From sequence record SRR2962707_578: DNA of 64,000 bases; one strand, written 5' to 3'. The first letter of the stretch is position 1; each line of letters starts with the position of its first letter. Made by a program: the position numbers and the translations under genes. The notes beneath the pieces were generated by a model, which was not told the origin of the DNA, did not search any database, and saw only the letters and a program-made list of their open reading frames with translations. This document shows positions 4,155 to 64,000 of this stretch, one piece after another.

Positions 4155-4229
4155 TTTTTCTCTCCTGGCAGGCCAGTCCTGCCCGTTTTTTGTTGTAATG
4201 CTTTGGTTTAATGGGATCCCGAGCAGACC

Positions 4230-5405: not shown

Positions 5406-5459
5406 GATGTGTCCTCTCGCTCTTGCCGCGGGCGCCGCGACGCCCGCGCAGCGGCAAAA

Positions 5460-30214: not shown

Positions 30215-30230
30215 TCACAGGATGTGAGGA
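30215..30230 (+). promoter_or_regulatory. Putative CsrA/RsmA-binding hairpin abutting the PAAR gene ribosome-binding site
   Basis: TCACA-GGA-TGTGA perfect stem-loop running into GAGGA SD, 8 nt before ATG 30239. Confidence 0.5.
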
Positions 30231-30238
30231 TTGGCGAT

Positions 30239-31531
30239 ATGTCACGGCCGATCATAGTACTGGGTGACAAGACCGACCATGGCGGCACCGTCATCGGCGC
30301 TTCCACCACCACCGATATCGACGGCAAGGGCGTGGCCCGGGTCGGCGACAAGGTCATCTGCCCCAAGCACGGCCCTTCCCCCATCATCACCACCATCGCC
30401 ACCGGCGACCCCACCAATCTGGTCGATGGCCAGCCCGTTGCCCGTCATGGCGATAAAACCGCTTGCGGCGCGACCCTGATCTCCAGCCAGGCCGCGTCCG
30501 TGGTGGATGCCGGCGGTGGCAAAAAAGGCAGCGACCTCGGCGCGGTGGCCGCCGGCCTCGCCACAATCGTGGGCGTTTCCGCCGCGGTCATTGGGGCGCG
30601 GACCTCCCGATACGATGAGCAAATACGCTTCGTCAACGCCAAAGGCGCCCCCCTGGCCGGGGTGAACTATCGCCTGGAAATGGACGATGGCAGCGTGGTC
30701 GAAGGGGAAACCGATGACGACGGACGCAGCCGTCGTATCGAAACCGACCAGCCGAGAAAGGTGCTCAAGGCGACGCTTTCTTCCTCGCGACCCGAATGCT
30801 GCGGTGATCAACGGCACGGGCATGAGGCGTCCAGTCTGGAGGTCGAGGTGGGCAACGTCACCACCAGCGACCAGCAGGTGGGAAGCTCAGTGGTCACCGT
30901 GGCCACGCCGGAAGGTGAGTCACGAGGGCTGACCTCCGGGGAAATCGCCATGGCCTGGCAAATATTTGGTGATTCCGTTGATTATGGTCAGGTGCGTGTC
31001 CACAACGGCGAGTATCTGTGGTTCGGCTTGCAGCCGAACAATACCGCGATGACACCCAATGGGGAGATGTATTTTAATCCAGACCGGTTCCTGGAAGATT
31101 TTTCCGATCCGGCTATCGCGGAGCCGGTGGAGCAGGCCTGGTTTATCCATGAAATGACCCATGTCTGGCAGTATCAATTGGGCTATCCGGTTAAATGGAA
31201 ACGCGGGAATCCGCTGGGATGGTTCATGTCGTACGAATACAAAGCGGACCCGAATAAGAGATTGTGTGACTACAACATGGAAGAACAGGGGGACATTATA
31301 CGCGATTATTTTGCGTTGAAGTTCCTCGGAAATCGATACGTTGTTGTGCAACCAAAATATCGAATCTGGGATCATTTGCCAGTGTTGGAGAGCATGCTGG
31401 AGGATTTTCTCAAGCAACCTGGCGATGTCGGCAACTTGCCCGGGGGTGGAAAGTCTCGGCGGGACGAGAGGCGGACGCAGCGCGGTTTACAGAGAACCGA
31501 AGTCTTTGCTGATCAAGGAGACAAGGAATGA
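30239..31531 (+). CDS. PAAR-domain T6SS effector with transthyretin-like linker and C-terminal HEXXH zinc metallopeptidase
   Basis: LGDKTDHGG...VARVGD..CPKHG...PVARHGDKTACGA PAAR; YDEQIRF...GETDDDGRS TTR-like segment; RGLTSGEIA...AMTPNG...WFIHEMTHVWQ. Confidence 0.88.
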   Translation: MSRPIIVLGDKTDHGGTVIGASTTTDIDGKGVARVGDKVICPKHGPSPIITTIATGDPTNLVDGQPVARHGDKTACGATLISSQAASVVDAGGGKKGSDLGAVAAGLATIVGVSAAVIGARTSRYDEQIRFVNAKGAPLAGVNYRLEMDDGSVVEGETDDDGRSRRIETDQPRKVLKATLSSSRPECCGDQRHGHEASSLEVEVGNVTTSDQQVGSSVVTVATPEGESRGLTSGEIAMAWQIFGDSVDYGQVRVHNGEYLWFGLQPNNTAMTPNGEMYFNPDRFLEDFSDPAIAEPVEQAWFIHEMTHVWQYQLGYPVKWKRGNPLGWFMSYEYKADPNKRLCDYNMEEQGDIIRDYFALKFLGNRYVVVQPKYRIWDHLPVLESMLEDFLKQPGDVGNLPGGGKSRRDERRTQRGLQRTEVFADQGDKE

Positions 31532-32007
31532 AACAGGTCGTTATCGTGATCATTGCCTTGATCGTTTCCAGTTGTTATAGCATTTTCGGGCACCCCTCCA
31601 TGGGGAGGGCGTATACGATTGAGAAGGATGGCGTTCCCTGTTTTGCTCTCGCGGATCCCGATTGGAAGGATTGGGAGGCCGGATATATTCGTTTAACTGA
31701 AAAAGGGGAAAGCCCTAAGGTCATTTGGGAGGTGGGTATAGACCCCCCTCGTCCGGTCATCAACAAAAAAGACTGTGTCGCTTTGGGGCAAACCTTTGAG
31801 AACAGTGAAGTCCTCGTACCCTTGTCTTCCGAGGGCATGCTGAAAGCCGGTCGCGTCTACGGCATCAGCATGAATACTTCTCCTGTTGGTGACGACAGGG
31901 CCGGTCGGGCGTACTCCGGCCACTTTTGCTTGTCCGAATCCCCCTCCGGAGGCTGGGTGGTTCACGATTTGGGGGTGAAGCCCGATGCCTGCCCCGTTGC
32001 ACAGTAA
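31528..32007 (+). CDS. Lipoprotein, putative cognate immunity protein of the PAAR metallopeptidase
   Basis: MKQ + hydrophobic stretch + lipobox-like VSSC; ATGA-coupled to the effector; visibly lower GC. Confidence 0.72.
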   Translation: MKQVVIVIIALIVSSCYSIFGHPSMGRAYTIEKDGVPCFALADPDWKDWEAGYIRLTEKGESPKVIWEVGIDPPRPVINKKDCVALGQTFENSEVLVPLSSEGMLKAGRVYGISMNTSPVGDDRAGRAYSGHFCLSESPSGGWVVHDLGVKPDACPVAQ

Positions 32008-32040
32008 ATATGAACAGCGAAAACATTTCAGGAAGAAAGG

Positions 32041-33459
32041 GTGACTTTGGGTAAGACACTGAAGGGAATCTTGCTGGTCATTGTTGTCTTCGCCCTGTTC
32101 TGGGCCGGGACGATTCTTTTCTGGCGCCTCGGAAACACCGACCCCGGCTTGGGAGAATCCGTGGGTTGGCTTGTGCTTGCTCCGCTCGTGGTGCTGGTGT
32201 CGGTATGGAGTCTGATGCGATGGCGGCGTAACCGCCAGGCCGCCGCCAATGACCTGCCGAATACGTCGGCGCAGGCCCCGGAAATGACGGATGTTGAACC
32301 GGCACGGCTTAATTTGCTCGCCGCGGCGCTGCGCTTGCCAGCGGGAGAGACACCGGGGGAAGCGCTGCAAGGCCTGATGAAGCCTCAGACGCCAAAGCTT
32401 CACGACACCTTGTGTGATGCCCGGGGATTACCGTTATTCGCCGCTCCAGTACCACCGTTGACCGCCACGGCGCTGGACGCCGTGACATTGGAATTGAATC
32501 GACTGGCGGGCATGACCATGCCGGTGGAGGAGTCCATCCGTCGCGGACTGGCCTTACTGCTGCCCGTATTTGATGAATTACTGATGGAATTGGCCGCCGC
32601 CCTTCCCGACGAGGGGCCCACGGATGAACGGGTCATTGCCGGCCTGCTGCACCGCTCGTCGCCAACGCGGCCCGCACCGGTAATGGTGCGGGTAATGTTG
32701 CCCGCATCCGCTTCTCCCTCGCTGTTCCCGCTGTGCGAGAAGATGATGCGAGGCCGGGTGGAGGACCTGGGTTTGGCGACCGGCCTGAGCTGGCACTTTC
32801 AGTTTGACGACGCCAATGGCGGCACCGCCTTCTGGTCGCGGTTGGCCCGGTCGGATGAAGGGGAACAGTGGCAATTGTGGCTGGCGGCGGCCTCGTTGAT
32901 CAGCCCGGAGCGTCTGCAGTCGCTGCAGAGGCAGGGCATCCTGATGAGCAGCCGTACTCCGGAGGGAGTGATCCCGGGAGAAGGCGCCGCCGGTGTGTTG
33001 CTGGGGCCGACGGAAAAAGATGCCGAAGCGGTATCTTGCCGAGGCCCCTACGAAGTGACTACCAGGGAAATGGACAATCCGCAGGCCCGGGCACGGAAGA
33101 TGGCGAAAACATTGCGCCCGGGGCAAGCGACGGACCAGCCGCTCCCGGATCTGTTGATCAGCAATGCGGATTATCGTTCCGGCTCTTTCGAAGAGGCCGC
33201 GTTGTTGGCGCTGAGCTTGAATCCGGACCTGGACGCCAGCCGCCAGGTGCTGGCGCTGGGGCGTGCCGGAGCGCTGGATAACGCCACGCCGATGGCCATG
33301 GTGGCTTTGGCGTGGCAGGCGTTACGCGACGGTCATGAAACCGTCGCAATATTGTTCGTGGATGAACAACAAGGTCGGCGGGTGGCTGAATTCACCGCCT
33401 CGCCTTTGCAACAGAATCAAACCCAGCCGTCTCCGACGGCTGCCGCGGAATCGGAGTAA
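32041..33459 (+). CDS. Two-TM membrane protein with degenerate ketoacyl-synthase/thiolase-like domain (TsmK/AsaB-like)
   Basis: Two N-terminal TM helices, GVIPGEGAAGVLL motif, located immediately upstream of tssM. Confidence 0.6.
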   Translation: MTLGKTLKGILLVIVVFALFWAGTILFWRLGNTDPGLGESVGWLVLAPLVVLVSVWSLMRWRRNRQAAANDLPNTSAQAPEMTDVEPARLNLLAAALRLPAGETPGEALQGLMKPQTPKLHDTLCDARGLPLFAAPVPPLTATALDAVTLELNRLAGMTMPVEESIRRGLALLLPVFDELLMELAAALPDEGPTDERVIAGLLHRSSPTRPAPVMVRVMLPASASPSLFPLCEKMMRGRVEDLGLATGLSWHFQFDDANGGTAFWSRLARSDEGEQWQLWLAAASLISPERLQSLQRQGILMSSRTPEGVIPGEGAAGVLLGPTEKDAEAVSCRGPYEVTTREMDNPQARARKMAKTLRPGQATDQPLPDLLISNADYRSGSFEEAALLALSLNPDLDASRQVLALGRAGALDNATPMAMVALAWQALRDGHETVAILFVDEQQGRRVAEFTASPLQQNQTQPSPTAAAESE

Positions 33460-50292: not shown

Positions 50293-52995
50293 ATGAGCAT
50301 TAACCTGAAAACACTGATCAGCAAACTCAACGACCGCTGCCGGCAGGCGGCGGAGAGAGCCGCCAGCCTGTGCATGGCCGCAGGGCACTATGAAGTCGAC
50401 CTGGAACACCTGTTCGTGGCGTTGCTGGAGCAGCCTCGGAGCGATCTGGTTCTGGTGGCACGCCGTAGCGGCATAGCGCCGGATGCACTGGAACGAGACC
50501 TTCGCGTTGAAATGGAAAGACTCAAAACCGGTAATCAGCGCACCCCGGTGTTCTCTCCGCATCTGCCGACACTGTTCGAACATGCCTGGCTGCTGGCCTC
50601 GCTGGATTCCGGCACCACCCGTATCCGCAGCGGGCATCTATTGCTGGCGTTGTTGACGGAACCGGATCTGTCCCGCTTGGCGCAGCGCAGCTCCGCGTTA
50701 TTTACCCGATTTGATCTTGAGCAGCTGAAGCACGACTTCGACAAAATGACGGAAGGGTCGGAGGAAGGGCATCGTGATGCACCTCTGACGGAAGACGCGC
50801 CCAGTGAGGAAGGAGAGGACAAAGCGCTTGGCAAGACGCCGGCTCTGGATCAGTTCACCCAGAATCTCACCGACCGGGCTCGGGAAGGCGCTATTGATCC
50901 GGTTATCGGCCGTGATGGTGAGATCCGCCAGTTGGTGGACATTCTAATGCGCCGGCGTCAGAACAACCCGATCCTCACCGGTGAGGCCGGGGTGGGTAAG
51001 ACGGCGGTGGTGGAAGGGCTGGCACTGCGCATCGCCGCCGACGATGTGCCGGAACCCTTGAAAGGCGTGGCGCTGCATGTGCTTGATATGGGCTTGTTGC
51101 AAGCCGGCGCCAGCGTCAAAGGCGAGTTCGAGAACCGGCTCAAGACGGTGATTGACGAGGTCAAGAAAAGCGCCCACCCGATCATCCTGTTCATCGATGA
51201 AGCCCATACCCTGATCGGTGCCGGCGGTCAGGCTGGCCAGAACGACGCCGCCAATCTGCTGAAGCCGGCACTGGCCCGCGGCGAGCTGCGTACCATCGCC
51301 GCCACCACCTGGAGCGAGTACAAGCGTTACTTCGAAAAAGACGCGGCGCTGGCCCGGCGCTTCCAGGTCGTGAAGGTAGACGAGCCCAGCGAGGCTCTGG
51401 CCGCGGCCATGCTGCGTGCCATGGTGCCGCTGATGGAGCAGCATTTTGGCGTGCGCATCCTCGACGAAGCCGTTACCGAGGCGGTGAGATTGTCGCACCG
51501 CTACATCAGCGGGCGGCAACTGCCGGACAAGGCGGTATCGGTGTTGGATACCGCCTGCGCCAAGGTGGCGCTGGGGCAGGGCGCCACCCCCGCCGCTATC
51601 GAGGACGCCGACAAGCATTTACAGCGCCTGGAGCAGGAAGTCGCGGCTCTGTCCCGGGACGAACAGGCCGGGGCCTCCCATGGAGACCGCCTGGCGGATC
51701 TGCAAAGCGAGCGGGCGGAGACGCAGGACCGTATCGCTACCCTGAGGGAGCGCCTCGACCAGGAAGTGGCATTGGTACAGAGCATCCAGCGGCTACGGGA
51801 CGGCCGGGGAGAAACGGCGGTCCCCGGCCAGGCCGATTCTGGCCACAGCATCCCGGAGCTGTTGTCCCGGCTGCGAGAAGTACAAGGTGACGCGCCCATG
51901 GTACCTCTGCAAGCCGACGGCTCGGTGGTGGCGGAGATCGTTTCCAACTGGACGGGTATCCCGCTGGGCCGCATGGTCAAGGATGAGATTGCGACGATTT
52001 CCAATCTGTCCGCCCTGTTGGCGGAGCGCGTTACCGGGCAACAACATGCGCTGGACGCCATCGCACAGCGAGTGCGTACCGCCACCGCCCGTTTGGAGGA
52101 TCCGAACAAGCCCAGAGGTGTGTTTCTGTTCGTGGGCCCCTCCGGCGTGGGTAAAACCGAAACCGCGCTGGCATTGGCCGACATCCTCTACGGCGGCGAG
52201 CGCAAGCTGATCACCATCAATATGAGCGAGTACCAGGAAGCGCATACGGTTTCCGGCCTGAAAGGCTCGCCGCCCGGGTATGTAGGGTATGGCGAAGGCG
52301 GGGTGCTCACAGAAGCAGTGCGCCGCAATCCCTATAGTGTGGTGTTGCTGGACGAAGTGGAAAAAGCGCATCCGGATGTGCTGGAAATGTTCTTCCAGGT
52401 TTTCGACAAAGGGGTGATGGATGATGCCGAAGGGCGCGAAATCGATTTTCGCAACACCCTGATCATCCTCACTTCCAACGTGGGCTCCTCGCAAATCATG
52501 CAATCCTGTCTGAACCAGGAAGCTGACTCACTACCGGACCCGGACGCGCTCCATGATTTGCTGCGTCCAGTGCTCTACAAGGCTTTTAAACCCGCCTTTC
52601 TGGGGCGGCTCAAAGTAGTGCCGTACTATCCGATCAGCGATGACGTTCTGGCGCGTATCATCAAGATGAAACTGAACCGCATCGCACGGCGGGTAGCGGA
52701 GAACCATGGCGCCTTGTTCGAATGGGACGACGCCTTGGTTGAATCGGTGCTGGCCCGGTGCACCGAGGTGGACAGCGGTGCCCGCAATGTGGATCACATT
52801 CTCAACGGCACGCTTTTGCCGGAAATTGCCGAGTCCGTCCTCGCCGCCATGGCCGAGGGCGCTAAAATAGCCGGTATCCGGGTGACCGCGGATGATAACG
52901 GTGATTTTCAATACACGGTAACGCCGGAAGGGGTGCCGTCAACCGGAGCCGAGTCTCCACAAATCTTGTCCTTTCATCACAGGAGTGAATCATGA
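50293..52995 (+). CDS. tssH: T6SS AAA+ ATPase ClpV (TssH)
   Basis: RRRQNNPILTGEAGVGKT, LKPALARGEL, GPSGVGKTE, GSPPGYVGYGEGG. Confidence 0.97.
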   Translation: MSINLKTLISKLNDRCRQAAERAASLCMAAGHYEVDLEHLFVALLEQPRSDLVLVARRSGIAPDALERDLRVEMERLKTGNQRTPVFSPHLPTLFEHAWLLASLDSGTTRIRSGHLLLALLTEPDLSRLAQRSSALFTRFDLEQLKHDFDKMTEGSEEGHRDAPLTEDAPSEEGEDKALGKTPALDQFTQNLTDRAREGAIDPVIGRDGEIRQLVDILMRRRQNNPILTGEAGVGKTAVVEGLALRIAADDVPEPLKGVALHVLDMGLLQAGASVKGEFENRLKTVIDEVKKSAHPIILFIDEAHTLIGAGGQAGQNDAANLLKPALARGELRTIAATTWSEYKRYFEKDAALARRFQVVKVDEPSEALAAAMLRAMVPLMEQHFGVRILDEAVTEAVRLSHRYISGRQLPDKAVSVLDTACAKVALGQGATPAAIEDADKHLQRLEQEVAALSRDEQAGASHGDRLADLQSERAETQDRIATLRERLDQEVALVQSIQRLRDGRGETAVPGQADSGHSIPELLSRLREVQGDAPMVPLQADGSVVAEIVSNWTGIPLGRMVKDEIATISNLSALLAERVTGQQHALDAIAQRVRTATARLEDPNKPRGVFLFVGPSGVGKTETALALADILYGGERKLITINMSEYQEAHTVSGLKGSPPGYVGYGEGGVLTEAVRRNPYSVVLLDEVEKAHPDVLEMFFQVFDKGVMDDAEGREIDFRNTLIILTSNVGSSQIMQSCLNQEADSLPDPDALHDLLRPVLYKAFKPAFLGRLKVVPYYPISDDVLARIIKMKLNRIARRVAENHGALFEWDDALVESVLARCTEVDSGARNVDHILNGTLLPEIAESVLAAMAEGAKIAGIRVTADDNGDFQYTVTPEGVPSTGAESPQILSFHHRSES

Positions 52996-53342
52996 GCGTC
53001 TACGGAGTGGATCAGGAAAAAGCCATCACCAACTGCGACGCGGGCCCGAGCATCGGCCGGAAGAGACCGTTGGATGAGGTGCGCCGCTGGCATCGCGTGG
53101 CCCCGGGGCATGTGGTCGAGTTACTGGTGGAATCCCCCATCGAACAGCGCCATCAGGCGCGTCAGCTGCTCGGCATGATGGAGCATATGCCGTGGCGGAT
53201 TCAGGCGCCGGCACAGGCTCAGGATCGGGCCGGGCGTCTGGTCAGCAACGTAAGACTGATCGTGTTGACGATCGCCGGCCGCAATCACCAGCTCCATTGT
53301 TCCGAGTCGCCTTCGCTTCAGTTGGAGCGGATCTCCGCGTAG
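52992..53342 (+). CDS. Hypothetical protein (116 aa)
   Basis: AGGAG SD, ATGA overlap with the clpV stop, fills the clpV-vgrG gap; no recognised family. Confidence 0.6.
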   Translation: MSVYGVDQEKAITNCDAGPSIGRKRPLDEVRRWHRVAPGHVVELLVESPIEQRHQARQLLGMMEHMPWRIQAPAQAQDRAGRLVSNVRLIVLTIAGRNHQLHCSESPSLQLERISA

Positions 53343-53408: not shown

Positions 53409-56400
53409 ATGGATGTGATTGCCAGTCTGATGAGTGCGTTGTCCGCGCCGGGGCAGGGAGCCCGTTTATTGCAGCTCCACACTCCGCTGGGGCCGGACGT
53501 TCTGGTACCGGAGAATTGCCACGGCATCGAGGCGGTTTCCGGCGCCGGTGTCGACTCCGGCGCCGGCTTTCGTTTTGATATTACGGCACTGTCGGTGGAT
53601 GCCCGCCTGCAAGCGGACGACTTGCTCGGGCAGCCGGTTCTGCTCACCTTGCTTACCGCGGACTCACGGACGGATCGCCGCCCTTTCCATGGCCATGTCA
53701 CCCATTTCGAGTATCTGGAGAGCAACGGCGGACTGGCCCGATATGCGTTGGTGATCGAGCCGTGGACAGTGTTCCTGCAACAGTGGGTGGACAGTCATGT
53801 CTATCAGGACATGACTGTCATGGAAGCCCTCGACACCTTGTTCGGGCGACTGGCGGCCCGTGGCGGCGTGGTCGCGCCTCGCTGGCGATGGGACTTGGCG
53901 GACAACGCGCTTTACCTCCGGCACAGCCTCGCCGCGCAACTGGAGGAAGATGGTCTGGCGTTCATGACCCGGATCCTGTCGGAGCAGGGGCTGTTTTTCT
54001 GGTTCGAGCATCAGGGGAATATGCAGGGTGAGGAAGAAGGTCAGAGCACGCCCAAGGAGGCCGGCGAATTCCAGGTGCCGGGCAGCCATACACTGGTGAT
54101 CGCCGATTATAACAGCGCTTTCTCGGATCTAGGCGGGATCCGTTATCACCGCAGTGATGTCACCGAGCAGGAAGACGCCATCCAGCAATGGCGGCCGGGA
54201 CGCCGCGCCCATGCCGCTGGCGTCCGCCGGGCCACCTGGGATTACCGATCGCTGAAAACCCTATCCTCGCAACAAAGCAGCGCGGATATGGCCTGGTCAC
54301 GGGCGGAGGATGACGACAGCCCCACGGCCTATGCCTGGCACAATCAGGCGGAAACTGAATGGCGCGGCCGTCGGCACATTGAAGTTCTGGAAGCGGCTGG
54401 GAAACGGGTGGAAGGAAATGGAACCTGGCGGCGGTTGCGTCCCGGCGGGCAATTCCAGCTTCACCAGCACCCCGGATACGCAGAGGATGCCACCTTTCTC
54501 TGCCTGGCGGCGACACACCATGCCCGCAACAATTTAAGCTCGGATCTGATGGCGCAAGCCGATCAGCGTTTCGAGATGCCACGGCCTGGCTTTCCTGATG
54601 CGCCAGAGCCTCTCGGTGACGACGCCTTACCGTCTCTGGATAGCGCTCCAGAGTCTGATTTTTATCGCAACGGTTTCGTTGCTCTACAAGTGGATACGCC
54701 GTTTCGTCCCATGGATACCACGTCACGCCATGGGCAGTCCCGGATCCGTGGCCGGGGCCTGCACAGTGCGGTGGTAACCGCGGACAATACACCGGTGCAC
54801 ACCGACCGTGATCATCGCATCAAGATGCAATACCCCTGGCAACGGGGCGAAGGCGCCAGTAGTGGGGAATCCCATCCTGAAAGCGGCATCGACAACGCTC
54901 CGGCCAGCGCGGGCGCCTGGACCTGGGTGCGCACGCTGACGCCATGGGCTGGCGAGGATTGGGGCGGTGTCGCCGTGCCCCGAACCGGGCAGGAAAGTCT
55001 CACCCTGTTTTTGGAAGGCCAGCCGGAAAGGCCCGTTGCCATCGGTACCGTTTTCAACGGTCAGGGCAACGACGAAGCCCAGCATAATCAGGTGGGTGGC
55101 GGTCACGCCCGGGCCACCGGTAATGCCGCCCCCTGGTTCAATGGCAACGATCATAAAGCGGTCTACACCGGCCTGAAGAGCCAGGCACTCTCCGCCAGCC
55201 AGCAAGGTAACAGCGGCCACCAATGGATACTGATGGACAGTAGCGAGGGGCAGTCCCGTGCCGAAGCCGGCAGCACCCAACATCAGAGCCGTTTGAGCCT
55301 GGGCCACCTGAAAGGCGGGAAAGACAACCTGCGGCAAGGAGAAAGAGGTTTTGGCGCCGACTTGAGCACCGTATCCAGCGGCGCCCTTCGGGCTGGACAA
55401 GGTGTCCTGCTCAGCACGGAGGCGGGGCAATGGCAAATGAGCACCGATGGCGCCCAGGCGCGGCTGCAGGGTAATGCGGACCTGCTGAAAACCCTCAATG
55501 ACGCCGCACGCAACCAGAACGCCGGGCAGACAGGCGAAGCCGACGAATTGCCTTCCCAGCAATCATTGCGCCACGTATTAACCACGCTGAAAGACACCCG
55601 TTCCGGCTCTGGAGGGGAGCAGGGCGGTGCCGGCTCACCGCCCGGCTGGTCCCGTCCGCTGATCGTCGCCACCAGCCCGGATGGGCTGGCCAGCATTACC
55701 CAGCAGGCACAGACCTGGGTAGCGGGTACCACCACCACGCTGGTCAGCGGCGCGGACATCAACTGGATGAGCAAGAGCCGCACGGTAATGACCGTGAGCG
55801 GCGGACTAAGCCTCTACAACAACGGCGCCTCGCCAGCCAGCGGCAAACCCAACCAGGAAAGTGGGATTCAACTGCACGCCGCCCAAGGCAAAGTCAGCGC
55901 CCGCGCCCCAAAACAACCCTTGACCCTCGCCGCCGCCCAGGACGTCGCCCTGGCCAGCACCAACAGCCAGGCCATCCTGGCCGCCCCCAACCAGCCCCTC
56001 CTGCTCGCCTCAGGCGGCGCCTATCTTAAACTCGATGGCGGCAACATCGAGCTGGGTGCTCCGGGAGGGGTGCATCTGCAAGCAGCGATGAAGCAGTTTG
56101 TTGGGCCGGCAAGCGCTTCGGCGCAGGCCGCGCCCTTGAGTGCGGGCAATTTAAAAGCTTGCCCGGAAGGCGATGCGCAGGCGGCGGCCGGCGGTGCGGC
56201 GTTTCTCATGGAATCTTCTTCCGCCGGGATTACAGAGTTCGATGAAGCCTTCGTTCTACGCTCCAAAAAGACGGGACAGCCCCTGGCGAACCGAGCCTAT
56301 CGTGTTATCCGCGCGGATGGTTCGGTAGAGGAGGGGATAACCGATGAGAACGGTTCAACCCATATCGTGGTCACCGGTGACTCTGAAGATCTGCAGATTG

Positions 56401-56423
56401 AAGTTGGGGGAAGGCAGGCATGA
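53409..56423 (+). CDS. vgrG: VgrG spike protein with DUF2345 and C-terminal transthyretin-like extension
   Basis: HTDRDHRIKMQYPWQRG, WVR..PWAG..WG...PRTGQE..FLEGQPERP, IQLHAAQGKV, GAYLKLDGGNIELGAPG, FDEAFVL...GITDENG. Confidence 0.93.
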   Translation: MDVIASLMSALSAPGQGARLLQLHTPLGPDVLVPENCHGIEAVSGAGVDSGAGFRFDITALSVDARLQADDLLGQPVLLTLLTADSRTDRRPFHGHVTHFEYLESNGGLARYALVIEPWTVFLQQWVDSHVYQDMTVMEALDTLFGRLAARGGVVAPRWRWDLADNALYLRHSLAAQLEEDGLAFMTRILSEQGLFFWFEHQGNMQGEEEGQSTPKEAGEFQVPGSHTLVIADYNSAFSDLGGIRYHRSDVTEQEDAIQQWRPGRRAHAAGVRRATWDYRSLKTLSSQQSSADMAWSRAEDDDSPTAYAWHNQAETEWRGRRHIEVLEAAGKRVEGNGTWRRLRPGGQFQLHQHPGYAEDATFLCLAATHHARNNLSSDLMAQADQRFEMPRPGFPDAPEPLGDDALPSLDSAPESDFYRNGFVALQVDTPFRPMDTTSRHGQSRIRGRGLHSAVVTADNTPVHTDRDHRIKMQYPWQRGEGASSGESHPESGIDNAPASAGAWTWVRTLTPWAGEDWGGVAVPRTGQESLTLFLEGQPERPVAIGTVFNGQGNDEAQHNQVGGGHARATGNAAPWFNGNDHKAVYTGLKSQALSASQQGNSGHQWILMDSSEGQSRAEAGSTQHQSRLSLGHLKGGKDNLRQGERGFGADLSTVSSGALRAGQGVLLSTEAGQWQMSTDGAQARLQGNADLLKTLNDAARNQNAGQTGEADELPSQQSLRHVLTTLKDTRSGSGGEQGGAGSPPGWSRPLIVATSPDGLASITQQAQTWVAGTTTTLVSGADINWMSKSRTVMTVSGGLSLYNNGASPASGKPNQESGIQLHAAQGKVSARAPKQPLTLAAAQDVALASTNSQAILAAPNQPLLLASGGAYLKLDGGNIELGAPGGVHLQAAMKQFVGPASASAQAAPLSAGNLKACPEGDAQAAAGGAAFLMESSSAGITEFDEAFVLRSKKTGQPLANRAYRVIRADGSVEEGITDENGSTHIVVTGDSEDLQIEVGGRQA

Positions 56424-58063
56424 CAACCTTTTCGCTCTTGGGAGGTTCCCAAACTTCGCCTATCGAAAACCGGGAACGCAAGATCATCGAAGTGGATGAT
56501 CCCGAGCTGAATGTTTGCCTCTACGTAATGGACGCCGGCACCAAGCAGGACGCGTTACCCTACGTGGCTTATTCCCCGGTTGATCCCTCCTCCTCGCCCG
56601 GGGAAAACGCCGCACTGTGCTTGCGGGCATTGGCGCCGGAAGAGAGTGCGACCATCGAATTCGACCTACTGGGAGAGGACCGATCACCTGAACTGGACGA
56701 GTCCATGGACCGTGCGGAAATCCATTGGCGGGTCGTGGATACGGACGATGACGGCATCATCGGTGAGGGCGACTTCGCCGCAGGTTTGGCGTCATTGGAT
56801 CTGTCCTTGAAACAAGGAGGCGAAGTGTCTCCGGAACGAATATTTGAGGTGCAGATCGGCCCCGCGGGCGCGGAACCCTTTGAAGTTGTACAGAGTGCGC
56901 AAGTGCACTTGTTGCGGGACCGGTTATCCTGGTGGTTCGAACCGTGCTCAATTGATTTCGGGTGGCGTCCGTCACAACCGGAGATGCGCAAGGATACAGG
57001 AGAGTACCGGCACCCTCAGAGAACTGCCTATACCCGCGAAGCATTGCAGTCCATCTATGCGTTCCTTGCCATGGAAGACAAAGGAATATTCCCGAAAGGC
57101 TCCTGGTTGAAACCTTCAGTGACCTGCTTCGGGGAATTCAATGAGAAGCTCAAAGAAGCACACGGTGCTGATCTCATGGACCTCAACACTGTCGAGCGCC
57201 TTGATTTGACCAGTGTCGTTTCTTTGAATTCTCAGAATGAGAGAATTAATGCTCTCGGATACACGCTGACGAAACAAAGCGCTTACCACAACCTGGACCC
57301 CAATCCCGCATTTAAAGTGAGGGCTAAGAGAGAAAGGGTGAACTGGGTCATGGAGGCGGTGGAGAACATCGGTGATACGAGACTGCCTCTGGCGGTGCTG
57401 TTGGCCAAATGGCAGACGGAAGGGTCACTGAAGGTCAATGGGAGTGACAGTATTGTCGAGCAATACAGCAGCGAATGGCTTCGCGACCCTGAAAGCGGCT
57501 TCGATCCCAAAGGCGGTTGGAGTTCGTCGACGGGAGCAAAGCTGTATTACGCCTACGCAACAGCGTGGTCGGGGCTGGGTGCGGATTTTTTGACTACGCA
57601 TATAAAAGGGGAAAACGACAATCGTTTGATTCTCAACGATTTCGATAACTCCTATCAGCACTTTATTTCCCAGGCCGACCGGTTTGGGGGGCGTGGGTTT
57701 GGTGCATCGATACTGGGTGATCTCGATGTCACCTTAGCGGAGAAGTCCTGGGGTAGCTATTATATGGTGACCGGGAACGCCGCTTTTTTCACCAAAATGC
57801 TGGAGATGGCGGGCAGATTCTTTCTGTCTGAGTGGAAAGAGTATGGTGCCGATATCACCTATATGGCTTACAACGTCGGCGGATCGACATACGGCAAGGT
57901 GCTCAATGCTTACAACTCGGGAAAATACCTTGAGCGAACCCGGCTGAGCTTCGTTGACTGGGTGATGCACTATGAAATTCGAGACAATGAATGGAAGAAG
58001 CCTAGGCGAAACGCTCTGCGATTTCATTTCTACCGCAAGGTATTTGAAGGGGAGAACATCTGA
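56420..58063 (+). CDS. Putative T6SS cargo effector, candidate lysozyme/transglycosylase-like peptidoglycan hydrolase
   Basis: ATGA-coupled to vgrG, no signal peptide, lower GC; LLAKWQTEGS and YMAYNVG motifs. Confidence 0.62.
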   Translation: MTTFSLLGGSQTSPIENRERKIIEVDDPELNVCLYVMDAGTKQDALPYVAYSPVDPSSSPGENAALCLRALAPEESATIEFDLLGEDRSPELDESMDRAEIHWRVVDTDDDGIIGEGDFAAGLASLDLSLKQGGEVSPERIFEVQIGPAGAEPFEVVQSAQVHLLRDRLSWWFEPCSIDFGWRPSQPEMRKDTGEYRHPQRTAYTREALQSIYAFLAMEDKGIFPKGSWLKPSVTCFGEFNEKLKEAHGADLMDLNTVERLDLTSVVSLNSQNERINALGYTLTKQSAYHNLDPNPAFKVRAKRERVNWVMEAVENIGDTRLPLAVLLAKWQTEGSLKVNGSDSIVEQYSSEWLRDPESGFDPKGGWSSSTGAKLYYAYATAWSGLGADFLTTHIKGENDNRLILNDFDNSYQHFISQADRFGGRGFGASILGDLDVTLAEKSWGSYYMVTGNAAFFTKMLEMAGRFFLSEWKEYGADITYMAYNVGGSTYGKVLNAYNSGKYLERTRLSFVDWVMHYEIRDNEWKKPRRNALRFHFYRKVFEGENI

Positions 58064-58818
58064 TGGCTTCGCTGATAAGGTCGAATCCGTTCGTCGCCAC
58101 CGCAGGCCTGTTGATATTCTCGCTTTCCAGCCCGGCACATAGCCAATGTCCTCTCCTTGGAGAGGCCCGCCAGTTTGAGCCGACCCTCTCAGCGCCCCCG
58201 TGGGAAGAGCCGGTAGCAAAAGCGGATTTACCTTGGTTCAAAGCGCATGCCTCTGAAACCCGAATTATCAGCGGCACCTCCGAAACCGGCGGCAAGGAAG
58301 TCACCATTGAGTATCAAGGCGGGCACTTGCTGCTTGATGAAGGCCCTCCCTCCTATCAGGTCCAGGTTCAATCCATTGCGGGGCCTTTGCTATTCAGCCG
58401 GGACTCTGATGGTCGCAGCCGGGTCCGAATTCGCAATGTGGAGCGGCTGGTCAGTCACGACGATGGCTCCTTGTCACTGGATCGCCTGGCCGAAGTGAGC
58501 ACACCGGAATGGTCGGAGTGTGGATTTGTCCTTGATGGCAACGAGAACCCGACGGAACGAGTTGGCATCATACTGCCGGACCTCCACCTTCTGACGGATG
58601 GGGATCGCTCTCAATACAGCCTGCTTATCCGGGAGAAGGAGGCAGCAACTCGTCTGCCCGTTCCTTTTGAGCAATGGAGAAACGTGCCGGTGCAGCAGTT
58701 GGAAGAGCACGCCATTGTGTTCATGGCTCCGGAGAACCTGGATAGAAGCAGGGTGCGGGTGGTTTGGCTCCACCTGGACAGCAAGGGAACAATTGAGTCG
58801 CGGGCAAGCGGACAATGA
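58063..58818 (+). CDS. Exported protein, putative immunity protein for the upstream effector
   Basis: Sec-type signal peptide (…AGLLIFSLSSPAHS), TGATG overlap with the effector stop. Confidence 0.6.
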   Translation: MASLIRSNPFVATAGLLIFSLSSPAHSQCPLLGEARQFEPTLSAPPWEEPVAKADLPWFKAHASETRIISGTSETGGKEVTIEYQGGHLLLDEGPPSYQVQVQSIAGPLLFSRDSDGRSRVRIRNVERLVSHDDGSLSLDRLAEVSTPEWSECGFVLDGNENPTERVGIILPDLHLLTDGDRSQYSLLIREKEAATRLPVPFEQWRNVPVQQLEEHAIVFMAPENLDRSRVRVVWLHLDSKGTIESRASGQ

Positions 58819-59810
58819 GAAGGGCAGGGAGCCCGGCCCAGCCGGGAAGACGAAATCATGACGGAGTAGCTTCGTTATTGACGCGGGCGGCCCAATCGAG
58901 TGCCGGCGCCTATCTACTGGTTGACCCCTTTCTGGCCACGTGGCGCCAGGCCCGGGATCGCTTGCAGGTGCCGGCTTCTACCGACGTAACCATGGTGAAA
59001 GTCGGCTATGCCGGGATCACCGACGAACAATGCCCCCGTCTGATTCGCTGGAAAAGCACCGATAAAACCTGGTTGCGGCACACGGTGATGCTCGCCGATG
59101 AAGAGCAAGCCGATGGCGGCCAGGAATCCGTAAAGGGTTTGATGATATCCGGCTGGCTTTTTTCCGATGAGGCACCCGCCACCATCGCCCACCATCTTGC
59201 CCGGATTTCCACGCTGCGCCATCCGAAAGCGGGCCGGTGTTATCTGCGATGGGCGGATCGACGGGTATTGGAGTGGATGTGGCCCAGTTTTTCCTCCTGT
59301 CAGCGTCGCCGATTGCTGGGCCCGATCAAGGCCTGGTACACCCTGAACCGCCGGGGAGGCCTGATTGAGTATCAGACGCCCAAAAAGGAACGAGAACCTG
59401 AAGAACACTTTTTGCCCCCTTTGATGACGATGGAACAATGGAGGAGGGCGGAGCAGGGGCAGTTGGTGCAGACGTTGTTGAGGGGCTGGGCTGTCGGTAA
59501 CACCGAAGCCTTGCCTGAGGACTATTTGCTCCAAGCCGGCAATGCTATCCAAGGTGCCCTGACATTGGGCCTGAGCCGCCAACGGGACGTTCTGTTGCTC
59601 GCGGGATACACTCTGCAAGTACACCCTCGGCTGGCGGAACATCCCAGTGTCATCGAAGTGGTACAGCGGTCCCGCAAAACGGGCGTCCCTCTGCAGGCAG
59701 CCCTGCAGGAAATTGAGGACCCTTCCGGTTGGGAACGTATCCGCAAGGAACTTAGTGAACACGCTCCCAGGCAGGGAGCAGCGATTGACAGAAGGGAATC
59801 TGCAACATGA
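58815..59810 (+). CDS. DUF4123 T6SS effector chaperone (Tap/Tec-like)
   Basis: YLLVDP, PRL, GWLFS...IAHHL, YLRWADRRVL...LLGP...W; lies between the vgrG module and the effector; start may be further downstream. Confidence 0.82.
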   Translation: MRRAGSPAQPGRRNHDGVASLLTRAAQSSAGAYLLVDPFLATWRQARDRLQVPASTDVTMVKVGYAGITDEQCPRLIRWKSTDKTWLRHTVMLADEEQADGGQESVKGLMISGWLFSDEAPATIAHHLARISTLRHPKAGRCYLRWADRRVLEWMWPSFSSCQRRRLLGPIKAWYTLNRRGGLIEYQTPKKEREPEEHFLPPLMTMEQWRRAEQGQLVQTLLRGWAVGNTEALPEDYLLQAGNAIQGALTLGLSRQRDVLLLAGYTLQVHPRLAEHPSVIEVVQRSRKTGVPLQAALQEIEDPSGWERIRKELSEHAPRQGAAIDRRESAT

Positions 59811-62800
59811 CCACATCCCCCTCCGTTTTAGGCACGTACACTCAAAAAGCCATTGCCATAGCCGCGGGAAGCGGTGAAAGCGAGGCTCAGGGCTGCCCTT
59901 CCTGCGTCAAGGCGGGGCTTCCCGTGTTGCTGACAAGGCCCGGCCTGGCCGACAAGCAATATGCTCTGCAAAAGCGCCGAGCGGTGGCGCCTCTTCTACC
60001 TGGGGTGGCGGACCCTGCCTTGCGTCATGCTGGCTATGTGATGCGTACATTGCGCAAGGGCTACCTGTTTGCCTACTACGAGGAACCCCATACTCCGCAG
60101 ATCACGCAGCAGCAAGGCTGGCAGGCCTTTCGGGTGGATGATGGTGGTTCCATGTCGCCCCATGCCATTGACGATTTGCCGTTGGACGGCCAGGAACAGG
60201 ACACGACGTTCAGTTGCGAGCGGGTGGCCGGTTACGCATCGGCCATGCTGTTCGTCATCCCGGATGCCAAGAACACCGGCAAGGTCTGGGTCGGTTTCAG
60301 TGATCACCCATGGAGTGAGAAGGTTCTCGAAAGCTATGCCGGGAGCGAGTCCCTGCGTCAGGAAAGAATGGTATGCATTAACGCCCGGGAGGCCAGCTGC
60401 GAGCGAGCTGTGCCGCTTACCACCACCAATCTTGAATCCACGGTGGCGGATTATGACCCGGAGCGTCCCTTCGAAGCGTTGCGCGGCTCCCCCTTTCCTC
60501 CCTTGGTGCCGTCGGGCGGCTTCCTCGGTATCGGAAGAACACTGCCGTTCCTGGAGTCCATCCAGTTACCCGTGCGGGAAGAACGGGCGTCTGACGTCCT
60601 CGAACAAGCCAGAGTGATCCTTGGCCGGGATGGCAATCAGTTCAGCCCCGCCGACGTAAAAATTGTCAGTCTGCCGGATCCGGTGGGCGTCACGTTCGAG
60701 GCGGCCCAGCGCCGGATCACACTGTGCAACACCGCGGCGGAATGGGTAAATCAGCAGGCCAACGGCGATACCGGAAAAGCGCACTGGATGCTGACCTCGG
60801 CAATGAGCGTCGAGGGGCTTCTCATTGAGCTGGACCGCTCTGCGGAGAGTCGGAAGGCGGGCTTCAATACCCAATATCCGGAATTCAATGCGCAGAGGGA
60901 AGGCCGCGGCCCTGGCATAAGAATGACCCATGAGGAATTCCGGCGGAAGCAAGAATCCGGCGAGCTTCCTCCAGAAGCCACGTTCGACCTGGTGGTGCCT
61001 TACACGGGCATGTCCAGCCAGGAACTGGAGGATTACCGGAACAACATCAGCACGGTACGCCTCCCCACCAACAGCAGCATCGACCGTGAAACGGAAAGGC
61101 TCAAAAAGAATGTGCTCGACAAGCTGGAACCCGGGAATGGGGGGCAGCTCAAGTACAAGGAATTTCTCACCGCTTTCAACGACAAGGTGAAGGAGGACCA
61201 GCTCAGATTGGCGGAGCTGGAAGCCGACTATTTCGCCTGGCTGGATTGCACCGCCCGGAAGCAGGTGACTGCGAATGACTTCGACGAGGAATGCATCGTC
61301 GATGGCGTCTTTTATTGCGATTGCGTCAGCAAACTGACCTTTGCCGGGCACCTTACTGATAATGGCCTGGAATGGTACAAGAACTTTCTTACCGACGATC
61401 CGGAGGACAAGGAAAATCTGTTATTGAGGGCGTTGCTGGGCAACCAGAAAAGCGCCTTTGAGGAGTGGGTGGCGAAGAAAAAAGGCCCCTACGGACAGCT
61501 CAAGTCCATCATTGGCGAAGTGGAAAAGGCGCTAAAAGATGACCCGGAGGCGCTCGGCCCGCAAAGCCGGACCATTGCCCGATGGTTGCCGCACTTGAAA
61601 ATTGGACTCACCGCCATGGTCAGCCCGGTGTTGACCGTCACCGGTGCCGTGGCCACGGGCTTAGCCAAACGGGATGAAATCACCGCCGCCTTCCGCGAGC
61701 AGTTGCGTAACCTGTCCGGAGTAATAGCCGCACGCAGCAGCGGCAACCAACTGCCAGCGCTGCTGAAAGTACAGATGTCATTGAGCGATGCCACGCGGTT
61801 CTGGAATCGGCAAATGGGTACTCTGCAAGGCGCCATGCGCACCTTTGCGGGCCAGGTGCGGGGCGACAAGGTACAAAGCCTGGTGCTGGGTGGCGCCATT
61901 GCCCTGGAGGCCCGTGGTGCCAGCGCAATGAGCGATGCTCTGGTGGATGTGTATCTGTGGGCCAGTGACGTGCCGGATGCGGTGGGTGATGCCCTGGACG
62001 GTGCCATGGACCTGCCATCCCGGGCGGCTTCCGGCGCCAGCGCCGGCGCGGCTGCCATGGCCCGAGCCGGCAACTATATCCTGAGACCGGCGGCGGCCAA
62101 CTTGAACCAGGCCTGGCAGGGTGCCGCCCGCCTGGTGACCCGAACCCAACTTGATCGTCTGGCCCGCAATAGCGTGACTCTGGCCAGCAATGGCAGTGCC
62201 CTGCTGGCAGTGGGCTCCGGTGTGTTCTCCTCTCTGGCCCTGCTCGATGCCTGGGACAAATTCAAACATGGCAGTGCTGAGGAACGGCAGCAGGCTGGCA
62301 CCAGCTTGCTGACTTCGGGATTGGGGCTTTCCGGTGCCTTTCTGGCTCTTGGCGCGGAGATGGCGGAGCAGGCCGCTAAGGAGGCTCTGAAGGCAAGCCT
62401 TAAAAAGGCAGCGGGGATAGTGGGGGCTGCTGCAGCACTTATAGATGGGGCTGCTTCTGTCGTGGGTGCTTTTGAGTCATCTGATCAAGGAGACTCGGAT
62501 GTAGCTGCGGCGAAGTTTATTCAAGGAGTGTTCTTGATTGGTGCGGGTGTGGCGGGTATGGCCGCTGCTTTTGGACTAGGTAAAGTGGCTCTTCTTGGGC
62601 TATCTGTAACAGGATGGGGCTTAGTTCTCGTCGCCCTTGGTATTATCGCAGGATTTTTTGTTGCTGCTTTGCAGGATACCCCTACCGAAGAGTGGGCAGC
62701 CCGAAGTTTATGGGGAAAAGCCAAGGACAAGTGGGGAAGCTTTGAGCGCGAACAGGGACAATTAAATACTTTGATGTTGGGTATCCAGGTGGATTTTGAT

Positions 62801-63280
62801 TTTCGCAGCCGCTTCACCAACATGAGTAACTACGGCCGCTCCCTGGCTCATCAGGTCAACCCACTCAATATGGTTCGCGATGCGGGCAAACTGATTCGAG
62901 GTGAACGGCCCGGCCCACAGATGATGCGCGAGGCCTGGGCCCGCATCGTCACCCCGCAAGCGCTGGAGAACCATCTATGCTGGCTGGTGCGGGTTATTGC
63001 CCGGCGCAAGGACGGTAAGGATGCGCTGGTGGCAAACTACAGCCATCGTCCCGGTGATGTCGTCTTGGTGGCGGCCCGGCGGGACACCTACGAGAACGAC
63101 ATGGAGAGCGTAAACCCAGATCAGGATGACAGTAAGCGGGAAGACGATTTCTGGACTGTGGAGCTTTCCGCCCAGTTGGATATTGAGGTCTACGAGGAGG
63201 CATGGGCCGAGGTATTGATCTACGGGGACCCAACGGCTTCAGAAGCTCCATTGGTCAACCACACACTGAGAGAGGAATAG
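59807..63280 (+). CDS. MIX-domain T6SS effector (BTH_I2691/VasX-like), probable membrane-disrupting toxin
   Basis: N-terminal CxxC..GLPVLLTR, YVMRTLRKGYLFAY (MIX-like), DPVGV, Gly/Ala-rich TM helices near the C-terminus (GWGLVLVALG...DTPTEEWA). Confidence 0.85.
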   Translation: MTTSPSVLGTYTQKAIAIAAGSGESEAQGCPSCVKAGLPVLLTRPGLADKQYALQKRRAVAPLLPGVADPALRHAGYVMRTLRKGYLFAYYEEPHTPQITQQQGWQAFRVDDGGSMSPHAIDDLPLDGQEQDTTFSCERVAGYASAMLFVIPDAKNTGKVWVGFSDHPWSEKVLESYAGSESLRQERMVCINAREASCERAVPLTTTNLESTVADYDPERPFEALRGSPFPPLVPSGGFLGIGRTLPFLESIQLPVREERASDVLEQARVILGRDGNQFSPADVKIVSLPDPVGVTFEAAQRRITLCNTAAEWVNQQANGDTGKAHWMLTSAMSVEGLLIELDRSAESRKAGFNTQYPEFNAQREGRGPGIRMTHEEFRRKQESGELPPEATFDLVVPYTGMSSQELEDYRNNISTVRLPTNSSIDRETERLKKNVLDKLEPGNGGQLKYKEFLTAFNDKVKEDQLRLAELEADYFAWLDCTARKQVTANDFDEECIVDGVFYCDCVSKLTFAGHLTDNGLEWYKNFLTDDPEDKENLLLRALLGNQKSAFEEWVAKKKGPYGQLKSIIGEVEKALKDDPEALGPQSRTIARWLPHLKIGLTAMVSPVLTVTGAVATGLAKRDEITAAFREQLRNLSGVIAARSSGNQLPALLKVQMSLSDATRFWNRQMGTLQGAMRTFAGQVRGDKVQSLVLGGAIALEARGASAMSDALVDVYLWASDVPDAVGDALDGAMDLPSRAASGASAGAAAMARAGNYILRPAAANLNQAWQGAARLVTRTQLDRLARNSVTLASNGSALLAVGSGVFSSLALLDAWDKFKHGSAEERQQAGTSLLTSGLGLSGAFLALGAEMAEQAAKEALKASLKKAAGIVGAAAALIDGAASVVGAFESSDQGDSDVAAAKFIQGVFLIGAGVAGMAAAFGLGKVALLGLSVTGWGLVLVALGIIAGFFVAALQDTPTEEWAARSLWGKAKDKWGSFEREQGQLNTLMLGIQVDFDFRSRFTNMSNYGRSLAHQVNPLNMVRDAGKLIRGERPGPQMMREAWARIVTPQALENHLCWLVRVIARRKDGKDALVANYSHRPGDVVLVAARRDTYENDMESVNPDQDDSKREDDFWTVELSAQLDIEVYEEAWAEVLIYGDPTASEAPLVNHTLREE

Positions 63281-63288
63281 CTGATTCC

Positions 63289-64000
63289 ATGCCGGTAGAC
63301 GATAAAGAACGTGGCATTCTGATTCCGGAATGGCGGAAAAAAGAGCCGGAGCTGACGTTTACGGAATCTCAACGTAAGCGGAATATCTATGCACGCAAGG
63401 CCCCGCTGAGGGTAATGCCCAATGATAAGAAACAATCCGTCCACTTGAAACCGGTCAGCTATAGAACGGTATTGCGGGTCCTGCCTGAGGCGATTGAAGT
63501 GGGAACCTCCATGGGGGAAGGCGTAGCCAAGTACCTAGGAGTCGGCGGCTTTCTGGTAATACTAGTGGCATTATTTATGGTTATCTATCCATGGTTCCGC
63601 AATGAGGAAGGTTTTCTATTGTATGGTTCTCTTTTTTTTGGAGTTATATTTCTTCTGATTGGGATAACGTTTGTCCGCCGAGCGTTTTTCAGTCCCTCCG
63701 ATCATCCGACCTTATTCAATCGCAAGACCCGGCAGGTACATGTTATCCCGCTGAAGCCACTTAACTTCTTGAAATTTTGGGAAAAAGGCAAGCCTGGTAA
63801 GATGAAAACCTACTCCTGGGACAACGTTACCGCCCGCACCTACCGGCGTCTGGATGTGCCGGGTGGCACGGTGGCGCGCACGGAGACGGCCATGGAATTA
63901 CTTTGCATGACCGAAGAAAACCCGAAAGTGGTGGATGAGATGGTTAGTCTGGGCATGACTGGGACCTGGAGTGACAATAATCAGGTGGCACTGTGGGAGC
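63289..64000 (+). CDS. DUF6708-like two-TM protein, putative immunity protein, truncated at the window end
   Basis: Read manually: MPVDDKERG... open to 64000; two TM helices followed by HPTLFNRKTRQVHVIP; absent from the ORF track because no stop is in view. Confidence 0.75.
   Translation, partial: MPVDDKERGILIPEWRKKEPELTFTESQRKRNIYARKAPLRVMPNDKKQSVHLKPVSYRTVLRVLPEAIEVGTSMGEGVAKYLGVGGFLVILVALFMVIYPWFRNEEGFLLYGSLFFGVIFLLIGITFVRRAFFSPSDHPTLFNRKTRQVHVIPLKPLNFLKFWEKGKPGKMKTYSWDNVTARTYRRLDVPGGTVARTETAMELLCMTEENPKVVDEMVSLGMTGTWSDNNQVALWE

Follow-up and report, generated by a model that had tools for sequence, protein, structure and literature searches.

We examined a 64,000-nucleotide (nt) stretch of DNA from sequence record SRR2962707_578 (hereafter the window, in whose positions all coordinates are given), focusing on two adjacent open reading frames (ORFs) of 547 and 251 amino acids (aa) that directly follow the spike gene vgrG of a type VI secretion system (T6SS) and are candidates for an effector and its immunity protein. 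Upstream of this pair lies a complete T6SS cluster, which runs from TssM, TagF and an OmpA-type protein on the + strand, through TssA, TssL, TssK and TssJ on the - strand, to TssB, TssC, Hcp, TssE, TssF, TssG and ClpV, and then vgrG. Five genes were found 3' of vgrG, namely the 547-aa ORF, the 251-aa ORF, a DUF4123 adaptor gene, a gene for a VasX_N/BTH_I2691 effector and a DUF6708 gene, and vgrG and the next four are linked through 1- or 4-nt overlaps. Read directly from the sequence, the vgrG stop and the start of the 547-aa gene share ATGA (56420-56423), the stop of the 547-aa gene and the start of the 251-aa gene share TGATG (58061-58065), and the 251-aa stop shares ATGA with the DUF4123 start at 58815; the ORF coordinates give a 4-nt overlap at the DUF4123/VasX-like junction and a longer one between the VasX-like and DUF6708 genes. 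An earlier note on this DNA had described the 547-aa gene as translationally coupled to vgrG, coupled in turn to the 251-aa gene, and comparatively poor in guanine plus cytosine (GC), and all three statements held: its GC content is 53.0%, against 62.5% for vgrG and 60.8% for the window, with 57.7% for the 251-aa gene.

The export signals of the two proteins also agreed with that note, which had given a Sec-type signal peptide to the smaller protein and none to the larger one. On inspection by eye, the N-terminus of the 547-aa protein (MTTFSLLGGSQTSPIENRERK) contains no hydrophobic stretch, and only 6 codons separate an upstream in-frame stop from its ATG (in the identical locus L040, the stop-to-stop frame spans 3983-5641 and the match begins at 4001), so that a longer exported form is impossible. 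The 251-aa protein, likewise judged by eye, begins with a basic n-region and a hydrophobic core (FVATAGLLIFSLSS), followed by AHS and then Q as a Sec-type leader would be.

We searched for relatives of the 547-aa protein and found no Pfam family at E<=1 and none in NCBIfam, while PDB sequence searches with the single protein and with the family profile (E<=10) gave chance matches only; the proposal that it matches no described effector family therefore stands for Pfam, NCBIfam and PDB sequences. An exhaustive phmmer search of 1.84 billion cluster representatives detected 28 relatives at E<=1e-3, of which 12 also passed E<=1e-30. A word-indexed search of 5.8 billion proteins returned two relatives, a profile search of the same set added nothing beyond those already found, and a scan of viral contigs gave none. 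No PHROG matched the family as a whole when all 28 members were compared; the few endolysin PHROG matches concerned one family member each, which we assume to be the PG_binding_1-bearing P0032. Among 20 relatives scanned against Pfam, 16 carried no family at all and the other 4 matched unrelated domains only, with real Pfam domains in two distant relatives. P0032 itself (936 aa, a distant relative) combines Peptidase_C70 (an AvrRpt2-like cysteine protease) and PG_binding_1 with a following region that resembles query residues 368-542, and keeps a W-x-x-E-G-S motif.

Conservation was counted in the 28-sequence alignment over the sequences that cover each column. All 18 covering sequences retain E334 (codon 57419-57421) and G335, and 17 of the 18 retain S336; next come G387 (20/21), D389 (21/21), D400 and N401 (20/21 each), Y481 and N485 (24/25 each), G487 (22/25), W514 (24/24) and R529 (26/26), with H517 as a further invariant residue. 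The most distant members retain LLALWxxEG(S/T), LGxD, DN, Yxx(Y/W)NxG and PRxxAxxF, so that E334 and the AYNxG motif can be regarded as signatures of the family. The earlier note had placed E334-G-S and AYNVG at these sites and expected them to be conserved among homologues, and both points were borne out, AYNVG occupying residues 483-487 (57866-57880), 150 residues from E334. Its third motif, WSGLG, is present at 383-387 and fared less well: only G387 is conserved, together with D389 two residues on, and W383 and S384 are not. We also observed an invariant block (Y204/E207/L209/Q210/S211/Y213, R-E-S-L-Q-S-[IV]-Y) at residues 200-215, in a helical middle region outside the lysozyme-like domain described below.

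An AlphaFold2 model of the 547-aa protein, built with the 28-sequence alignment, reached a mean predicted local distance difference test score (pLDDT) of 85.4 and a predicted template modelling score (pTM) of 0.83. In addition to the N-terminal immunoglobulin (Ig)-like domain (Table 1), the model shows residues ~200-547 as an alpha-rich body that includes a beta-hairpin (435-452), and places E334 at the end of helix 324-335. Its C-terminal domain is predicted to have the lysozyme-like, alpha-rich fold of the soluble lytic transglycosylase (SLT)/glycoside hydrolase family 23 (GH23) group, in line with the lysozyme-like fold that had been anticipated for this half of the protein, and Y484-N485-x-G487 supplies the AYNxG motif of the SLT group. 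Foldseek searches against the PDB and BFVD, including a second look at the Foldseek list with VIA, gave Ig-like matches to the N-terminal domain only; in a separate comparison, peptidoglycan enzymes made up eight of the ten matches to the C-terminal domain. The alignment with MltF starts at model residue 292 and chain residue 274, and an ungapped run from there would put E334 on MltF E316, which is the catalytic glutamate of MltF according to the available excerpt of PMC10746161; for MltE-E64Q (the name in the entry title) the same offset arithmetic places E334 within four residues. Because no residue-level alignment is given, the equivalence of E334 and E316 is inferred from the alignment ranges. 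As a lead only, 24 of the 30 named clusters that lay closest to residues 300-547 in a language-model atlas carried SLT-type families, with scores of 0.91-0.93. Taken at the level of the predicted fold, the 547-aa family would belong to the lysozyme-like superfamily.

Table 1. Features of the vgrG-proximal region of the window
Feature	Position	Strand	Basis
vgrG, 1016 aa, T6SS spike; variable last ~95 aa	53373..56423	+	Phage_GPD, Phage_base_V, T6SS_Vgr, DUF2345 (Pfam); TIGR03361 (NCBIfam)
Transthyretin-like (TTR) C-terminal domain of VgrG, proposed cargo docking site	56238..56408	+	phmmer vs PDB: residues 47-103 of 56100-56420 match 6sjl_A 777-832, E 4.5e-4
Candidate effector (P0001), 547 aa, no signal peptide	56420..58063	+	ORF; ATGA overlap with vgrG stop; no Pfam/NCBIfam family
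Residues 1-27 of P0001, disordered N-terminus, no counterpart in relatives	56420..56500	+	pLDDT <50; relatives align from ~residue 30 on
Residues 32-166 of P0001, predicted Ig-like beta-sandwich domain, nine strands	56513..56917	+	AlphaFold2 model
Residues 292-547 of P0001, predicted enlarged lysozyme-like (GH23-like) catalytic domain	57293..58060	+	E334, G387/D389, D400-N401, Y481-x-x-Y484-N485-x-G487 (57860-57880)
Candidate immunity protein (P0002), 251 aa, Sec-type leader	58063..58818	+	ORF; no Pfam, NCBIfam or PDB sequence match
DUF4123 adaptor gene, part of next effector module	58815..59810	+	PF13503, E 3.2e-8
VasX_N / BTH_I2691-family effector, 1157 aa, second cargo of same spike locus	59807..63280	+	PF20249 E 8.5e-28; NF041559 E 1e-108
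DUF6708 protein, runs off window; likely immunity protein of VasX-like effector	63202..63999	+	PF20455, E 2.1e-10

The 251-aa partner consists of the Sec-type leader (~1-27), a flexible linker to ~47 and an all-beta domain at 50-248; its AlphaFold2 model has a pLDDT of 74.7, with residues 1-47 disordered, and the predicted fold of this candidate immunity protein found no clear match; the known lysozyme and lytic transglycosylase inhibitors and T6SS immunity folds considered were PliG, MliC/PliC, Ivy, Tsi1 and Tsi3. No Pfam or NCBIfam family was found at E<=1, a PDB sequence search gave chance matches only, and the word-indexed search of 5.8 billion proteins returned the protein itself only. 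We then scanned 21 loci, namely L001 and the 20 (5 + 15) that the family alignment had retrieved from genomes and metagenomes, and found that a hidden Markov model (HMM) of the small protein matches the ORF directly 3' of the large gene in 19 of the 21, the other two contigs ending within 140 nt; this count includes one Alloalcanivorax balearicus locus twice, as L001 and L005, and metagenome loci of which some are identical to each other. Named sources were A. balearicus MACL04 and metagenome-assembled genomes (MAGs) labelled Phycisphaerales, Gemmatimonas, Verrucomicrobia and Akkermansiaceae. The small protein of the window is related to the Gemmatimonas and Akkermansiaceae partners (BLASTP, 4e-12 and 4e-9), and every partner opens with a short run of basic residues and a hydrophobic segment, then continues into a linker rich in Pro, Ser and Thr. 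Across phyla, identity is 35% for the partner against 73% for the enzyme in one comparison and 36% against 61% in another. The exported partner is real and is co-inherited with the enzyme. A complex prediction for the 547-aa protein with small-protein residues 28-251, run without controls or custom alignments, scored 0.00 and weighs neither way.

The relatives of the large protein in other phyla differ in their N-termini. Signal peptides, one of them lipobox-like, were recognised by eye in seven relatives (P0010, P0013, P0015, P0023, P0025 and the L047 and L009 homologues), with TSP3 repeats after the leader in some relatives, and other relatives have long N-terminal extensions without a recognisable leader, for which reason Sec dependence is not claimed for all of them. 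The form found in Alloalcanivorax is one of the shortest full-length proteins, with its start ~30 residues ahead of the conserved sandwich. In the contexts visible, no T6SS gene was found near the relatives from other phyla; housekeeping genes, an IS200-type transposase and an integrase were present instead. An IS200-type transposase (L007, 4606-4953) and a phage-integrase-family gene (L041, 2797-3438) each lie just 3' of the pair, which hints at mobility of the cassette. A. balearicus has TssC on the contig that bears the pair, and the Gemmatimonas MAG has it on a different contig; the remaining three of the four other-phylum MAGs with relatives, of unknown completeness, gave no TssC match.

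We further compared the locus with related genomes. The large gene occurs in 1 of 41 related genomes, that of A. balearicus (84% identity); across 70 genomes of the family, the small gene was detected in this one carrier, with no orphan copies. A. balearicus shows the order seen in the window, that is, vgrG, the pair and DUF4123. G001, the genome closest to the window (71% of the window k-mers shared), has vgrG, DUF4123, a different VasX-like effector (945 aa, versus 1157 aa in the window) and two DUF6708 genes, with the pair absent. DNA identity between the window and G001 ends within vgrG at ~56128; the two VgrG proteins are 93% identical overall, near-identical to ~residue 919 and divergent over the last ~95. 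This region (56128-56423, compared with L004 of G001) has the appearance of a recombination breakpoint; the TTR-like tail and all that lies downstream differ. The VgrG tail co-varies with the pair, being shared in two of two Alloalcanivorax carriers and different in the one non-carrier. These results suggest that the pair behaves like exchangeable cargo.

The VgrG tail was also compared with the VgrG1-Tle1 system of enteroaggregative Escherichia coli (EAEC). The matched chain belongs to 6SJL, an EAEC VgrG-Tle1 model with a TTR domain beyond residue 778, and in that system the TTR domain of VgrG1 binds its cargo Tle1 through fold complementation with the N-terminal strand of Tle1, as stated in the available excerpt of PMC10715212. 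As in EAEC, the VgrG of the window ends in a TTR-like domain, with the cargo gene placed directly after vgrG and no adaptor between them, and the modelled 547-aa protein has a free, disordered N-terminus (residues 1-27) that may donate a strand to the TTR domain. The window differs in that its putative cargo is a predicted wall enzyme rather than a phospholipase, and in that the locus additionally encodes a DUF4123 adaptor together with a VasX-like effector, which may share the spike.

Together, these findings favour, with a probability of about 0.6, a VgrG-loaded T6SS effector that cleaves peptidoglycan glycan strands and is paired with a Sec-exported periplasmic immunity protein, in a family that has no name. 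The divergent peptidoglycan glycoside hydrolase effector with a periplasmic inhibitor that the earlier note had put forward is thus supported by the conservation of its motifs, the absence of a match to a known family in Pfam, NCBIfam or PDB sequences and the co-inherited exported partner. The 547-aa effector would be synthesised in the cytoplasm as a leaderless protein, loaded on the VgrG encoded just upstream, probably through the variable TTR-like tail, and fired into the periplasm of a neighbouring cell. There the enlarged lysozyme-like C-terminal domain would cleave peptidoglycan glycan strands, with the invariant E334 at the helix end as the putative catalytic acid, and the 251-aa protein, exported by Sec into the producer's periplasm, would block the enzyme and so protect sister cells. 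The 547-aa protein may be either a lytic transglycosylase or a hydrolytic muramidase, a g-type-lysozyme-like hydrolytic mechanism being conceivable because D389 and D400/N401 are invariant. The pair would form a self-contained cassette that is also present in other phyla, where the large protein comes with a signal peptide of its own, and that in some Alloalcanivorax genomes was presumably captured in leaderless form between vgrG and the DUF4123-VasX module. A broader version of this proposal, to which we give slightly less than an even chance, holds that the pair is a new cross-phylum muralytic toxin-inhibitor cassette, composed of an enlarged GH23-like enzyme with an Ig-like domain and an all-beta partner of new fold, which switches its export route; Verrucomicrobiota, Planctomycetota and Gemmatimonadota would secrete it through Sec, with TSP3 repeats, and Alloalcanivorax would have taken it up, minus the leader, as direct VgrG TTR cargo. 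On this view the pair would represent a fourth Tge-like effector family.

Several observations weigh against the effector-immunity proposal. Compared with family-1 lytic transglycosylases and GH23 (MltF, MltC, MltE, Slt70; g-type lysozyme), sequence homology is undetectable in the 547-aa family: there is no SLT or other lysozyme Pfam match at E<=1, and hhalign of the family C-terminal domain against 28 SLT domains from related genomes was not significant (E 0.09, probability 0.6%, 18 columns). The sole stretch aligned in that comparison set the family YNxG on the SLT AYNAG, and a greedy run (mact 0.05) gave a longer alignment in which E334 still did not fall on the SLT Glu. At the sequence level, the protein cannot be shown to belong to SLT/PF01464 or to any effector family yet described. 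Its motif is E-G-S rather than E-S, GLMQ is absent, with L-G-[AS]-D-F-L at 386-391 in the family, and the spacing from Glu to AYN is about twice that of SLT domains (longer, as had been claimed), with ~75 extra residues that include the beta-hairpin at 435-452. The family further differs from that group in the added invariant residues D389, D400/N401, H517 and R529, and the protein in its Ig-like N-terminal domain and conserved helical middle region; in this middle region, outside the lysozyme-like domain, lies a second invariant, acidic cluster (E207, Q210, S211). Between the window and A. balearicus, moreover, the partner is more conserved (90-93%) than the enzyme (81-84%), whose changes are concentrated after ~residue 100; this reverses the cross-phylum trend and, with the partner the more conserved of the two, is unlike a classic immunity arms race. 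The VgrG of G001 also has a TTR-like tail though the pair is absent, so that the tail may serve the VasX module instead.

We weighed these points against other explanations of the pair. The lysozyme-like fold might act on another substrate (chitin, chitosan or another glycan, with an antifungal or nutritional role) or might be a non-catalytic glycan binder, which we consider unlikely: an exported partner in the producer's own periplasm fits best with a target in the producer's own envelope, the family region of one distant relative is joined to PG_binding_1 and a peptidase, and peptidoglycan enzymes prevail among the C-terminal domain matches. Alternatively, the small protein might be an obligate helper (a membrane anchor, activator, chaperone or receptor), and the pair a two-part wall-remodelling or secreted lytic system. 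Strict co-occurrence without orphan copies in 70 genomes would suit such a role, as would the apparent N-terminal anchoring of the other-phylum small protein with its long Pro/Ser/Thr linker, its greater conservation than the enzyme within Alloalcanivorax, and the existence of controllers of housekeeping lytic transglycosylases such as IltA/LiiA, described in the available excerpt of PMC10746161. In the window, however, the enzyme is leaderless and only the partner has a leader, so the two would come together only after delivery of the enzyme into a periplasm from outside, as expected of an immunity protein; across phyla, too, the partner diverges much faster than the enzyme, and we regard a helper role as quite improbable.

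We give a similarly low weight to the possibility that the pair is a horizontally acquired passenger cassette that is exported by another route, or is inactive, and is not delivered by the T6SS. Its lower GC (53%), the relatives outside T6SS loci beside an IS200-type transposase or integrase, and the failure to find TssC in three of four other-phylum MAGs with relatives (of unknown completeness) would suit a passenger. Set against them are the overlapping start and stop codons that bind the pair to vgrG and to the DUF4123 gene, the loss of leader and N-terminal extension exactly in the copy beside vgrG, and the inheritance of the pair with a particular VgrG tail in both Alloalcanivorax carriers, a tail that differs in the genome lacking the pair. 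Finally, MltE or TagX serve elsewhere as wall-cutting accessory enzymes for T6SS insertion, and a lysozyme-like fold within a T6SS cluster might recall an enzyme that helps the producer to insert its own T6SS through the wall. This is very improbable, as no signal peptide is possible on the 547-aa protein and it therefore cannot reach the producer's periplasm by Sec; besides, the otherwise near-identical T6SS locus of G001 is without the gene, no match was found in 40 of 41 related genomes, and the protein is paired with an exported partner.

The favoured reading, a T6SS wall effector with an exported immunity protein, places the pair beside several known systems. Tge1/Tse3-Tsi3, Tge2-Tgi2 and Tge3 are T6SS peptidoglycan glycoside hydrolase effector-immunity families, and structures of Tse3 and Tge2 are present in the PDB. 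The proposed layout is the same, with a leaderless, putatively muralytic effector encoded next to an exported immunity protein within or close to a T6SS/vgrG locus, and this gene arrangement of Tge1-3 is found in the window. Unlike these families, the 547-aa protein is much larger, has an Ig-like domain and matched no PDB chain above chance (single sequence or profile; Tge sequences were not compared directly), the predicted fold of the immunity candidate has no clear match, and the cassette has counterparts with a Sec leader in other phyla. Acinetobacter baumannii Tse4 and Aeromonas TseP are, in the excerpts available, bifunctional T6SS cell-wall effectors with endopeptidase or amidase plus glycosidase domains; the 547-aa protein resembles them as VgrG-associated cargo with predicted lysozyme-like activity against the prey wall, and differs, as far as those excerpts describe them, in having one recognisable enzyme-like domain and no sequence relationship in any search. 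PseM of Pseudomonas aeruginosa, a recently described T6SS muramidase, is not considered related, because it is a homodimer with a different fold in the available excerpt of PMC12494544 and no P. aeruginosa protein was among the search matches. A keyword search of the open-access literature on Alcanivorax T6SS effectors, T6SS lytic transglycosylases and Tge/Tgi did not reveal the family (supplementary tables, e.g., of PMC11148199, lay outside its scope).

Elsewhere in the T6SS island, we observed a gene for a 435-aa PAAR-domain protein (PAAR at residues 13-87, the remainder without a Pfam family) followed by 159-aa and 472-aa ORFs without a Pfam family (30224-33459), which is probably another effector-immunity set. 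Just 5' of the PAAR gene, a Peptidase_M15_4 (D-Ala-D-Ala carboxypeptidase-like) protein is encoded at 29267-30058 and may be another wall-acting protein of the island. A 116-aa ORF without a Pfam family (52992-53342) lies between clpV and vgrG and overlaps the clpV stop.

T6SS effectors that degrade the cell wall and are matched by periplasmic immunity proteins are a well-known class, and for this reason the mode of action proposed here would not surprise a specialist. What is new is a protein family without a Pfam, NCBIfam or PDB relative and with just 28 representatives among 1.84 billion, the unusual, enlarged architecture predicted for its lysozyme-like domain, and the occurrence of enzyme and partner as a fixed pair across distant phyla, with a Sec-exported enzyme in some and a leaderless one behind vgrG in Alloalcanivorax. 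Lytic enzymes of such a kind and their inhibitors are of practical interest as antibacterial lysins. If the proposal is true, the pair would add a glycoside-hydrolase-type effector family together with a new inhibitor fold, would provide a clean case of a secreted lytic enzyme turned into spike cargo, and, in the broader version of the proposal, would illustrate from nature how T6SS arsenals take up existing secreted weapons along with their immunity genes.

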